Shown here piece after piece: positions 6,106 through 59,053 of a stretch of DNA of 64,000 nt. Every line of letters begins with the position of its first letter. The first letter of the stretch is position 1. Location: positions 101,804,001 through 101,868,000 of the forward strand of contig OX597823.1 of the NCBI GenBank assembly GCA_951406725.2. Direction: 5' to 3'. The notes beneath the pieces are model-generated. The model had not been told where the DNA came from and made no database searches. It worked only from the letters and a program-made list of their open reading frames with translations. The stretch comes from Octopus vulgaris. Lineage: Eukaryota. A program made the position numbers and the translations under genes.

Positions 6106-6143
6106 GCACCCGAGGAAAGTCGTGAGACTTGAAACGTTAGTCC
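6106..6143 (+). ncRNA. Hammerhead-ribozyme-like motif (degenerate)
   Basis: CCGAGGA-AAGTC-gtga-GACTT-GAAAC-GTT: CUGANGA-like box, perfect 5-bp stem II, GAAA box. Stem I is weak. Confidence 0.45.
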
Positions 6144-7240
6144 CCCACCCACCCAGCGTAGGGTTTACATTATTTAAACTAAAAATGTATGTTTAGATAA
6201 AAAGAGAGAAAGAAAGAAAGACAGAAAGAAAGAAGAGAGAAAGAAAGAAAGATAGATAGATAGATAGATAGATAGATAGATAGATAGATAGATAGATAGA
6301 TAGATAGATAGATAGATAGATATGTTTCTTTATTGGCCACACAGGGCTGAACACAGAGGGGACAAAATACAAAGTAGAGCTTTTCTTTCTCACAGAAATG
6401 TCATAATGTAAAAGGGGAAATAGATTAGGTCTATTCGTCGAAAGAAAAGCCTACGGAAAAGATAGATAAATAGATTGATCCACGAACCCATAGAAATAAT
6501 CCTACATGTCCATCTCTAATATTCTATTGTAATTTTAGTAATCTTTCTCATCTTTCTCTCACTCTCTCTCTCTCTCTCTCTCTCTCTCTCTCTCTCTTCT
6601 TACTTTCCGCTGATTTAGTTCCAATCTATCTCCAACTGTTCCTCTACTTCACCTCTCCGCACGCACACACACACACACACACACTCTCTCTCTCTCTCTC
6701 TCTCTCTCTCTCTTCCCAGATTTCTTGGTTCTTCAGTTTTCCTGGACTTCCTTTCCCTCTCTTTCTCTCTCTCTGTCTCACCCGCATCCACACACACACA
6801 CACGCACGCACACACACACACACACACACACACACACACACACACACGGGCATGCACACTTTCACTTCGTCTCTCATCCTCTCTTTTTTCACTCTCATCA
6901 TCTCTCTCTCTCTCCCTCTTTCTCCCAACCTCATCACCTTTTCCTCCTCTCTTCTGTCAATTTCTTCTTCTTTCATCTCTTCCAACACTCCACCACCACC
7001 TCTACCACATTCACCCCAATCGCCAGCACCAACCCCTTCTTTCCGTTCCCTGTTTTGATTTCACACATATTTCTTCCATGCCAACACCATTTCCTATAAA
7101 ACCCACATTCTATCATTCCAAATACCTTCCTTTACACAATTTCCTCTTTCATTCTTCTAACCCTTTCCTTTTCCTCATTCCTTACTCTCGTGATCTTTTT
7201 CTGTTCGTTTTTACCCATTCTTTGATCGTTGTGTGTGTAT

Positions 7241-7645
7241 ACTCTTTTACTCTTTTACTTGTTTCAGTCATTTGACTGCGGCCATGCTGGAGCACCGCCT
7301 TCAGTCGAGCAAATCGACCCCGGGACTTATTCTTTGTAAGCCCAGTACTTATTCTATCGGTCTCTTTTGCCGAACCGCTAGGTGACGGGGACGTAAACAC
7401 ACCAGCATCGGTTGTCAAGCAATGCTAAGGGGACAAACACAGACACACAAACACACACATACATATATATATACATATATACGACAGGCTTCTTTCAGTT
7501 TCCGTCTACCAAATCCACTCACAAGGCATTGGTCGGCCCGGGGCTATAGCAGAAGACACTTGCCCAAGATGCCACGCAGTGGGACTGAACCCGGAACCAT
7601 GTGGTTGGTTAGCAAGCTACTTACCACATAGCCACTCCTGCGCCT
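7241..7645 (-). mobile_element. SINE family A, near full length (tRNA-derived head, CORE-like block, (gtaaaaga)n tail)
   Basis: On -: A box (gtggctatgtggtaa), B box (gggttcagtccc), atcttgggcaagtgtcttct CORE-like block, central TA/TG microsatellite, tail gaaacaagtaaaagagtaaaagag. More than 8 related copies in the window. Confidence 0.85.
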
Positions 7646-8559
7646 ATGTGTGCGTTTGTTTGTTTTTGTTTGTTTTTTGTGGGCTTTTCCAGGGTTTTGT
7701 TTTAAAACCAAATATATAAACCCCTAAATAGAGATTATTGGCAACAAAAGATTAACTGGTAAATAAGCTTTAATCTAAACAATTTCTTTTACTCCTATTG
7801 AACAGACCCATAATTATGATCAACGACATTCCAATCGTAACCTACCCATCTCATTATATTTCAGACATAGTTCATCTTGGATTACATTAAGTAATGATCA
7901 GCAACGAAAGATTAACTTACAAATAAGCTGTCATGAAAACGTTGTTGTTGCTGTTGTCGCCTGTGAATCAGCCTCAGTTCTTCTGTTCTATAATTTAACA
8001 GGCTTTAGACTCAAAGACTTAACACCTGTCTTATTTTCTTTCTTATTTCCCCATCTTATTTTCTTTCAACCAGACAATATCTAGGATTAAGATTACATTA
8101 TCCGAAGTCCCCATTGTATTTTTTTAAAAAACAAAATCAGTGTGGCGTGATTTGGAAAGGGGATTGGCAGCTATTTCTAACGAAGAGAGAGATTCCTTCG
8201 TTGGTTCGATGTAAATTCTCGCTTATTCGTAAGCAGTTAAGATTAGATGGTTGCAGCAAATATTACACACGCACACACACACACACACACATTGTATTTC
8301 GGTGTGGTCGTTTGATTTGTTTGTTTGGGTTTTTTCGCCAAATAAACACACGCACTATTATTGAATTTGAATCAAACTGTTTTGATCCACACACACACAC
8401 ATATTTTTCACAATTAGTGCGTGTGTTTATTTGACAAAAAAACCCCCAAAAAACCAGAGTCCCGAAATACAACAATATATATTTCAATACACGGTTTCAC
8501 ATCAGGGATCTTGCGAAGCAAACCCATAAACAGTTCAATATCTAAGAGATGAGGAATTA

Positions 8560-8740
8560 TGTACATTATTTACATTATTTATAGTTGACGGATATTTCGG
8601 CTGATGTACCCTCCAGCCTTCATCAGGTGTCTAGGGGAAATTTCGACACATGATGAAGGCTGGAGGGTATATCAGCTGAAACATTGTGTTAACAACAAAC
8701 AAGATGAGGACAAATATCCGTCAAATGTAAATAATGTAAA
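8560..8740. mobile_element. Fold-back Penelope-pLTR-like element with a hammerhead motif in each arm
   Basis: Inverted arms (tacattattt..ttgacggatattt / aaatatccgtcaaatgtaaataatgta). + arm: ACAC-aTGATGA-A-GGCTG..CAGCT-GAAAC-ATT-GTGT. - arm: CTGATGA-A-GGCTG..CAGCC-GAAA. Confidence 0.7.
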
Positions 8741-8797
8741 TCCATAAACGTTTTAAATATATATATATATATATTTAAATACAAATATATATATATT

Positions 8798-56907: not shown

Positions 56908-56968
56908 AATAAAACTCCGAGTTTTGGATGTTGGGGCAGAAACCAGCACCAGCATCTCTTCAGTTATT
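56908..56968 (-). ncRNA. Type-I hammerhead-ribozyme-like motif within a short (TA)n-associated element
   Basis: AATAA-CTGAAGA-GATGCTGG..CCAACATC-C-aAA-ACT-cgg-AGT-T-TTATT. All three stems can form; G12 has decayed to A. Confidence 0.6.
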
Positions 56969-58099
56969 GAGGCAATTAAAATATGTATATATGCGTGTTT
57001 GAATGTATATATCAGCAGCAGCATCAATTTTTTGAGACTTGCACAGGTCAGATGGGATTTGTTGAGGCAGATTTTCCTATGGTTGGGTGCCTTTTCTGTC
57101 CCCCGTTTTCAAGCAAGGTAATATTTTCTCTCAAATTTGACATGTTTTGTCAAAGAGTGGAAATGAATAACCTCACTTGTATGATGCTCATTTACTACCA
57201 TCAAGACAATAGTACCAACACACACATGCAGGCTTCTTTCAGTGTATGTCCACTAAATTCACTCACAAACCTTTGGTCGATTCAGGGCTATAGTAGAATA
57301 CACTTGCCTAAGGTGATATACAGTAGAACTGAACTCAAAACCATGTGATCGAGAAACAAACTTGTTATCCATCAATCCACACCTTTTATCTTCACAAAAG
57401 GGTTGACAGAAATCTCCATTATACTATTTATATACAGAATCTGGAGAGATTTAGTAAAATAATTAAATTTTTGTTATCATACTGATATTTAAAACACCCG
57501 AGATTTATACATAAGATTATGGTGCAATATTTGGAATATTTTAAATCTAAATGTAACCACTTTAGAACAAGAGGTTTTTGTATCTTAGAAGCAGAAACTG
57601 TCTCAAGCAGATTGCTTATCAATTAAGATCCTGCAATGGGTAACAAGCACTATTTGCTTTAAGGAAATGAGAATATTAGTAATACAATGATGGATGGCGG
57701 CACCTTGCAGTGTTAGTATTGCAAGACCATGGATCTCCACCAGGAAAGTCTTGGTTTAGTTTTACTAATAGGATAGTATCTACTGCAACTGTAAATAACC
57801 ACAAGTAACAGTTCTGGCCACTGTGACAGCATCTAATGGCACTGTCTCACAATCATGTCTTCATTGTTTTTCTCTCAATTTTGCTTTTCTTCATCATCAA
57901 ACTTCCGTTTCCACTCAGGTCTTTTTTTAAATCTTTGCCTAGTTTTAGTCTTCAGTGGGGAGCAATCACCAACAATGTTATCCAACTTGTTCCAAGAATA
58001 TTTTTAAAAAATAAGTGAAAAGATTACAAAACAGAAGAATGACAATAGAGCCATAGACTTTAATCTAACAACTTTCCTTGACTCTATAACAATTATTAA

Positions 58100-58312
58100 A
58101 GGCGGCGAGCTGGCAGAAACATTAGCACACCGGGCGAAATGCCTAGCGGTATTTCGTCTGCCTAGCGGTATTTCAAATTCCGCCAAGGTCAACTTTGCCT
58201 TTCATCCTTTCGGGGTCGATTAATTAAGTACCAGCTATACACTGGTGTCGATATAATTGACTTAATCCCCTTGTCTGTCCCACCTATATTTATCCCCCTG
58301 TGGGCAATAAAT
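58100..58312 (+). mobile_element. SINE family B with an internal rearrangement
   Basis: ggcggcgagctggcagaaacattagc.., with tgcctagcggtatttc duplicated; tail ccccctgtgggcaataaa. Confidence 0.8.
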
Positions 58313-58861
58313 AAAAAAATAAATAAATAATAAACGAAATAAAGCTAATTCTTTTTATTTGGTTTATTAAGATATACAAATAAGAAAACTTCATAAAAAT
58401 AGTAATTTTTGTATTTGTTGTCTGTCTTTAAATACATTCCTTTTCTTCCAGGATAACTTACGAAAAGTCATAAGATAAAAGAAAGCAGAAAAAGAACAAG
58501 TTAAAAACGAAAATATATATTATATATATGTTTAAATAGATAAAAGAGATTACTATGCCAAAATAGAACAAATTCTTAAAGTAACAAACAAAAATATTGA
58601 AACAAATGTTAATTCTCAGATCTGTCCATCCATACCGAATATGGCAAATGTTTATATTCCTTAAAAAATTTTTAAAAAAAAGTAATGAAATTATAAAAGC
58701 TTTTAAGACATTTTTCAAACAAAACCCATAAACCAGATAGTAGCATATTTCTTTAAATGCAGTTTTAATTTAACCTGTGAAATAATTAACAATCAACAAA
58801 AAAGTTCTAGAGTTTAACATAATGGACTATATATACATATTTATTATATATACACTTTTTT

Positions 58862-59053
58862 TTATTAAAGCAGTAAAAACATCACAACAAACTGTTACTC
58901 AGAGTTTCGCATTCCCATTTGTCGGATAGTTGTGATCAAGGCTGGAATAAAATTTATCTTACAATTTTATTCCATTCTTCATCACAAGTGTCCAATGAAC
59001 AGGAATGTGAAACTCTAAGTAAGTTTTTTTGTGATGTTTTTGCAGTTTTAATA
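58862..59053. mobile_element. Fold-back element with a degenerate hammerhead motif in each arm
   Basis: Arms ttattaaagcagtaaaaacatcacaa..ttactcagagtttcgcattccc / ggaatgtgaaactctaagtaa..tgtgatgtttttgcagttttaataa. Arm consensus: tgt-CCGAyGA-Ay..Gy-GAA-ACTC-t-GAGT-A-aca. Confidence 0.6.

Follow-up and report, generated by a model that had tools for sequence, protein, structure and literature searches.

Hammerhead-derived motifs with variant cores in Octopus vulgaris DNA, probable 3' end pieces of Penelope-like elements

A stretch of 64,000 nucleotides from Octopus vulgaris (contig OX597823.1, positions 101,804,001 to 101,868,000; referred to below as the window, in whose own numbering all coordinates are given) carries short sequences that resemble hammerhead ribozymes. 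In an initial annotation made from the letters alone, six such cores had been listed and read as a set of retrozyme-like elements. We find that the motifs are real and hammerhead-derived, and that they behave as a variant of the minimal hammerhead of Penelope-like elements (PLEs), departing from the canonical core and from the tandem arrangement of retrozymes. All the named sites are present where they had been placed; only two, at 23670 and 25648, are complete, while four of the six are broken. With a probability of roughly 0.68, we read the sites as pieces of PLE 3' ends, copied by the PLE reverse transcriptase (RT)/endonuclease into AT-rich targets. The best documented of them, the 25648 element, belongs to an abundant family in which a core change has become fixed, which suggests that self-cutting plays little or no part in its spread.

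The window is AT-rich animal DNA (GC content 28-48%) containing many microsatellites, repeats resembling short interspersed elements, and decayed pieces of long interspersed element (LINE), long terminal repeat (LTR) and Tc1 elements; its repeat motifs look cephalopod-like. It was scanned with a full type-I descriptor consisting of CYGWNGA, an optional extra A, stems I and II of at least three pairs each, GAAA, a paired or palindromic helix III, and UH. Two matches were obtained, 25648-25683 on the plus strand and 23670-23704 on the minus strand, a count reached in 0 of 30 local dinucleotide shuffles. These are also the only two of the sites where an extra nucleotide 9/10.1, a stem II starting with G10.1-C11.1, GAAA, a palindromic helix III, NUH and stem I occur together, a combination shared by the consensus of the 25648 family described below. 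The four named sites that fail the descriptor lack variously stem I, C3, G5, G8 or G12. The strict CUGANGA descriptor gave no match across the window, and Rfam returned no hammerhead in it, either at gathering score or, at E<=10, among the 150 of 179 matches listed. Thus, standard searches do miss these motifs, as had been predicted. The canonical box C3-U4-G5-A6-N7-G8-A9 is intact only at 56908 and in the 8591 mirror copy, both of which are broken downstream, and C4 (U4C) cores are found in three elements (23670, 6106 and both arms of 58862).

Two further descriptors were shaped afterwards on the sites themselves. The first, which omits stem I, matched four times (one match being a deletion junction) against a null mean of 0.01, with 0 of 200 shuffles reaching four; the second, which carries a Hydra-type helix III, matched twice against a null of 0.12, a level reached in 1 of 200 shuffles. 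With two core mismatches allowed, three matches in total were found, not above the null mean of 3.75 (12 shuffles), and all three score at least 8, against a null mean of 0.42. Folding z-scores are unremarkable (-1.97 to +0.81), the hammerhead fold is the predicted minimum for 8645 only and not for the other seven sequences, and a two-copy dimer fold is never the energy minimum. These folding results carry little weight, since such results are common for minimal hammerheads.

The motif at 25648-25683 (plus strand) is a minimal type-I hammerhead with an A6U core. Stem I is formed by 25648-51 and 25680-83, stem II by 25660-63 and 25668-71, and helix III lies at 25675-78; among single positions, C3 is 25652, U6 25655, N7 25656, the extra A 25659, G12 25672 and H17 25679. 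Depth profile and loose ends delimit a short, abundant repeat around it (25590-25783), with a U-rich 5' part and a T-rich tail of about 100 nt leading to (TA)n. Its family was followed in public sequencing contigs aligned to 25562-25783: 25,629 records from a DNA run, X1, and 4,998 and 216 from X15 and X10, two runs guessed to be RNA, X10 being labelled as another organism. Position 6 is A in 0.5% (X1), 0.2% (X15) and 1.2% (X10) of the depth, and no other non-U letter reaches 5%. U6 is therefore the family consensus and not a private mutation. The positions that vary in the family, namely N7 (A49/C15/G17/T19 in X1), one base of loop II (52%) and H17, are those that a hammerhead leaves free. 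H17 is A or U, with U at 2% (X1), 18.5% (X15) and 10.5% (X10) and G not listed. A minor allele of at least 10% in X1 occurs at 0 of 30 constrained and 2 of 6 free motif positions (p=0.024), or at 3 of 6 free against 0 of 30 when H17, which varies in the two RNA-guessed runs, is counted (p=0.003). A CpG base in helix III has a minor allele of up to 16.5% in X10, and the outer stem I pair shows an uncompensated G>T at 8.7%. CpG decay was considered as the source of the N7 variation and ruled out, because G8A stays below 5% and both A and G alleles are present at N7. Tens of thousands of contig records suggest a large family. Depth peaks at the motif (6.9 million, a summed contig depth that is not a copy number) and falls to zero about 70 nt upstream; the 5' loose ends listed are short and U-rich and do not share any coding continuation. 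On the other side, 167 contigs continue past 25759 into TA-rich sequence.

Two further elements belong with 25648. The complete motif at 23670-23704 (minus strand) has a U4C core, H17 = U, and the stem II and helix III of 25648. It sits in an element of a related subfamily at 23573-23770 (minus strand), whose 3' tail is homologous to that of 25648 and ends at a (TA)n tract (23535-23572). The 25648 family has another, decayed copy at 46854-47020 (minus strand); it is 83% identical across 133 nt, and its core is altered by G5U, A6U and A15.1C. The elements had been described as otherwise not aligning. This does not hold for 23670, whose 3' flank can be aligned to the corresponding flanks of 25648 and 46942 (z 3.2 and 4.2). 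The three tails are mutually homologous (z 3.2-10.6), and the three sites therefore represent one lineage and not distinct elements. Just 5' of the 23670 hammerhead (23700-23770) is a 33-nt tandem duplication of U-rich sequence which takes in the 5' strand of stem I. Another repeat occurs in two copies 90% alike, 24510-25085 and 47041-47596, each near a copy of the 25648 family; the pairing probably reflects a shared preference for TA tracts.

We then looked for relatives with a relaxed pattern consisting of the end of the first box, stem II and helix III, with positions 3-6, H17 and stem I left open. In metagenomes it matched at least 120 loci (L001-L120), with about 340 estimated. Among the 120 matches listed, the unspecified positions 3-6 read CUGA in 30 and CCGA in 28, while in prokaryote genomes the same pattern gave CUGA in 0 and CCGA in 1 of 52. 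One family makes up 77 of the 120 matches listed (70 distinct), and its motif is one base, in stem II, away from the published hammerhead of an Acropora digitifera Neptune element. Within this family, a particular type of 3' flank accompanies C4 (28 of 32 C4 against 0 of 34 U4 copies among the matches listed, p=1e-14), so that U4C is a subfamily trait there too. This U4C subfamily of the Neptune-type pseudo-LTR (pLTR) hammerhead (L008, L010, L024, L097) is about as frequent as the canonical form (28 against 30 matches listed) and is absent from the published examples examined. Of the 70 distinct loci listed, 27 are preceded by an inverted partner, an arrangement also seen in the fold-backs of the window, and none has a direct copy within 400 nt upstream. 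By tblastn, about 10 of the loci listed, duplicates included, have a related open reading frame (ORF) fragment in common, which ends 34-102 nt upstream of the motif in L008, L049 and L110. The same motif stands at putatively GIY-YIG-like ORF ends elsewhere, including in the C4 copies L008 and L097, where it lies directly 3' of them. The Atlas ties one such end to GIY-YIG, as a lead only (score 0.91, the family being on 42% of cluster members), and a Pfam search of that end gave no GIY-YIG assignment.

Between the window and metagenome families, both sides of stem I have changed at 3 of 4 pairs (7 sequences). A covariance model was built from 45 metagenome loci; the other 75 of the 120 listed were dropped because they were duplicates, lay outside the family or had a core other than CYGA. 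It puts 23670, 25648 and 46942 at the top in the window (E 7e-6, 7e-6 and 0.05), but for stem II and helix III this result is circular, the search pattern having been derived from the window itself. The U6 (CUGU) core is found in none of the 120 metagenome matches listed, a window-specific 30-letter pattern has no match in metagenomes, and a short pattern has none in viral contigs. A CUGU-core pattern did give 46 matches in viral contigs, none with both stems, and these were treated as chance.

The remaining sites are incomplete. At 6110-6143 (plus strand), a partial hammerhead combines a U4C box, a 5-bp stem II and an ACGU helix III with no stem I, its 5' side abutting (TG)n. The element at 8645-8756 (plus strand) is a hammerhead relic with C3A, a 6-bp stem II, a 5-bp stem I and a tail to (TA)n; stems I and II are good in 8645-8690, where helix III reads ACAU and position 3 is A. 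It forms the right arm of a head-to-head fold-back. The inverted partner (8566-8634, minus strand) keeps a canonical first box and stem II, and a 33-nt deletion has taken its helix III and the 3' strand of stem I; the apparent GAAAUAUC in this mirror copy is thus the deletion junction. A Hydra-type relic occupies 56806-56968 (minus strand), with a canonical first box, a long loop II, helix III ACUC/GAGU, a 5-bp stem I, G12 missing, and a tail to (TA)n. Finally, 58858-59060 is a head-to-head fold-back of two broken Hydra-type hammerheads (arms 78% alike), both C4, with C3 at 58925 (minus strand) and 58992 (plus strand). The left arm has G8A and no stem I, the right arm G5A and a broken stem I, and the TGT/ACA stem I reported for 58862 forms only when the two arms are combined. 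Both fold-backs of the initial annotation, 8566-8756 and 58858-59060, thus stand. A tract of (TA)5 or more lies 107-159 nt 3' of C3 at six of seven loci, five of them firm and the sixth being 58862. By background such a tract is expected in 3.8% of cases at a distance of 90-170 nt, a range chosen afterwards, and in 9.1% at 0-170 nt. The remaining locus, 6106, has no (TA)n tract nearby.

Two repeats near these sites deserve mention. At 59179-59413, a head-to-head fold-back with arms of 104 nt, 95% complementary, has its left end abutting (TA)n; each arm carries a UUGAUGAA box without stem II or the GAAA half, and it is possibly a PLE end with half a core. The repeat at 25830-26220 has a short inverted arm and flanks rich in (TA)n; on its minus strand, the GAAACGCGUA half precedes the CUGAAGAA half. 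A permuted hammerhead in this repeat (25830-26190, GAAA half before CUGAAGA half) was ruled out as there is no stem I.

Together, these results point to a PLE origin. The insertion signature of PLEs is seen here, i.e. a 3' end about 100-150 nt past the hammerhead at AT-rich or (TA)n sequence, and inverted 5' copies. We propose that the sites would be the 3' terminal 100-250 nt (the pLTR portion) of several PLE lineages, each with a minimal type-I hammerhead: Neptune-type for 23670, 25648 and 46942, and Hydra-type for 56908 and 58862. RNA containing this portion would be bound in trans by the PLE RT/GIY-YIG protein, which would nick AT-rich DNA. Reverse transcription, presumably primed some 100-130 nt 3' of the hammerhead, would set the 3' end and leave short inserts that stop at (TA)n; the frequent head-to-head fold-backs could come from priming on two strands or from template switching. 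Work on a Poseidon PLE bears on these steps (Frangione et al. 2024, PMC11167929): hammerhead mutants insert normally, cleavage needs the protein, reverse transcription begins 111-118 nt from stem II, and nicking and extension take place on both strands. Since an element can insert without being cleaved, lineages whose U-turn core is weakened (A6U, U4C) and which presumably cut poorly could amplify, most individual copies then having decayed.

A heavily decayed RT remnant at 26590-26905 (minus strand), recognised by eye, runs from the YxDD region to the thumb, with three motifs in the order of Hydra-clade PLE RTs (6/7, 9/15 and 9/29 identities to Hydra ORFs). It is not joined to any hammerhead of the window and suggests that such elements inhabit this genome.

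Several observations weigh against this interpretation. The RT remnant has no match in Pfam, homolog searches, phmmer (1.84 billion representatives) or viral loci, and tblastn with distant queries found no PLE coding remnant adjoining any hammerhead of the window. In the 25648 family, constrained positions do not differ significantly from the flanks (0 of 30 against 9 of 112, p=0.11). The covarying stems that had been proposed hold for stem I between families, a comparison resting on about three independent lineages and on a structure supplied by the analyst; within the two families tested there is no covariation, no pair of the 25648 family reaching 5% in compensatory changes and none being seen among the metagenome matches listed. 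The raw-read run X22, which has the species label of X1, yielded 10 reads on the 25648 element out of 12.9 million, a scarcity at odds with a very high copy number; 5 of these 10 (two starts, 25600-25700) represent one divergent locus with canonical A6. High copy number, originally claimed for the whole set, is supported for at least one family, 25648, the only window element that the family data cover.

Could the U6 and C4 cores instead be maintained, working ribozymes? Several master lineages would then have changed N7, loop II and H17 and kept U6, G8 and G12, giving a natural A6U class in an animal genome, whose members would cleave poorly by themselves and be activated by the PLE protein or by a different metal such as Mn2+. 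We regard this as rather unlikely.

Alternatively, the sites could be 5'-truncated dead copies of autonomous PLEs, with no self-propagating non-autonomous families and with the variant cores belonging to the autonomous masters. Minimal hammerheads mostly occur solo in genomes, where they probably derive from truncated PLEs (PMC4209133), and the metagenome relatives at GIY-YIG-like ORF ends, C4 copies among them, would fit such masters. The abrupt 5' fall in depth at 25648, the lack of a common coding continuation among the listed loose ends and the absence of ORF remnants next to the window sites argue otherwise, and we judge this explanation improbable.

Less probable still, indeed very unlikely, are active non-LTR retrozymes, the reading of the initial annotation, in which tandem units are cut by dimeric hammerheads, circularised and reinserted. 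A palindromic helix III permits a dimer (self-duplex -1.7 kcal/mol), the 25648 family is present in contigs of the two runs guessed to be RNA, and retrozymes arise from the pLTRs of PLEs and leave monomers behind (bioRxiv 10.64898/2026.07.22.740005). Against this, the window holds no head-to-tail units, the listed metagenome loci have no nearby direct copy, published CUGA mutants other than the C3-G8 swap have low activity (PMC9901934), and the hammerhead fold is seldom the predicted minimum. Go-back joints of the 25648 family amount to three single-contig cases, none recurrent, weak evidence since contigs drop such joints. Chance, or a reader's pattern-matching in low-complexity repeats, is hardly credible and largely refuted for 23670 and 25648: loose descriptors match shuffles as often as the window, four named sites fail the full descriptor and Rfam finds none, but the full and post-hoc descriptors exceed shuffles, variation in the 25648 family falls on free positions, and unspecified core positions were recovered in the metagenome loci listed.

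Origin from PLE 3' ends thus remains our preferred reading, and it has some bearing on what PLE hammerheads are for. Their role is unsettled: animals at large retain them, their cleavage is weak, and insertion in vitro can do without them. A family that is abundant, and in which a normally invariant core base has changed and become fixed with the rest of the fold kept, offers a natural test of whether selection keeps the fold or the cut. Counts based on CUGANGA underestimate PLE hammerhead derivatives, and elements reported without hammerheads may in some cases carry such variants.

Other features of the window lie outside this argument. An open frame of 517 aa at 28720-30273 (plus strand) has leucine-rich repeats (Pfam LRR_8, E 2e-11) and hydrophobic ends and, judged by sequence, looks like a single-exon secreted or glycosylphosphatidylinositol-anchored leucine-rich repeat protein. 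A tRNA-Gln(CTG) gene is at 44234-44305 (minus strand). Also on the minus strand are a decayed LTR retrotransposon with integrase (34566-37322), a LINE with endonuclease and RT (48310-52962) and a Tc1-type transposase (54234-55370).

How do these motifs compare with known systems? That single genomes hold many PLE fragments with hammerheads has been published before. In Cervera & de la Peña 2014 (PMC4209133), PLE hammerheads are described with an extra nucleotide, a palindromic helix III, solo copies, high heterogeneity, opposite-strand pairs 100-700 bp apart and weak dimeric cleavage. The window motifs share with these the type-I layout, the U-rich 5' flank, the extra nucleotide 9/10.1, G10.1-C11.1, the 4-nt palindromic helix III, solo copies, opposite-strand pairs and many families per genome. 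The extra A and palindromic helix III of the initial annotation, like the fold-backs, were already in print. What differs is the core: the window motif departs from the published PLE consensus at position 4 or 6 and nowhere else. All 56 PLE hammerheads listed in that source have U4 and A6, both of which its descriptor required, whereas here U6 is fixed in one family and C4 occurs in three elements. The claim of variant cores is therefore upheld, and they are the new part; in the literature searched, as far as available, the fixed A6U, which the initial annotation had not picked out as a family-wide trait, is the one feature not found in print, neither a natural A6U nor its fixation in a high-copy animal repeat being found, and Lunse et al. 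2016 or Arkhipova et al. 2017 may already list such cores.

Among individual PLEs, the A. digitifera Neptune pLTR hammerhead (PMC4209133) has a stem II near-identical to that of 23670 and 25648, the same ACGU helix III and the extra A; it differs in stem I (GCU/AGC against UUU/AAA here), in H17 (C against A or U) and in its canonical core. Hydra-clade PLEs have (TA)n targets, a 4-bp helix III with a loop of 1-2 nt (ACUC-N-GAGU) and inverted 5' copies (Craig et al. 2021, PMC8557442). Their hammerheads resemble 56908 and 58862 in this helix III, H17 A or U, a short stem II, (TA)n and inverted copies; Hydra-2_aMil has a stem I ctgt/acag like 58862, and Hydra-1_oBim a ctgaagag box like 56908. Published cores of this clade are canonical, whereas the window copies are broken, 58862 having C4, and the six window motifs have no exact match to hammerheads in the available part of the PMC8557442 supplement. 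Non-LTR retrozymes (Cervera & de la Peña 2020, PMC7229834; Li et al. 2026, bioRxiv 10.64898/2026.07.22.740005) are likewise short, non-coding and PLE-derived, with a type-I hammerhead, but are defined by tandem units with canonical hammerheads and by circular RNA. Finally, natural core variants are known from a viroid (U4C) and from phage Bcep176 (A6C), both with low but detectable activity, A6C preferring Mn2+ (PMC3088659, PMC7151607). The same U-turn positions are changed there as in the octopus motifs, but those are single pathogen or phage examples, whereas here one change, A6U, is the consensus of an animal repeat family.

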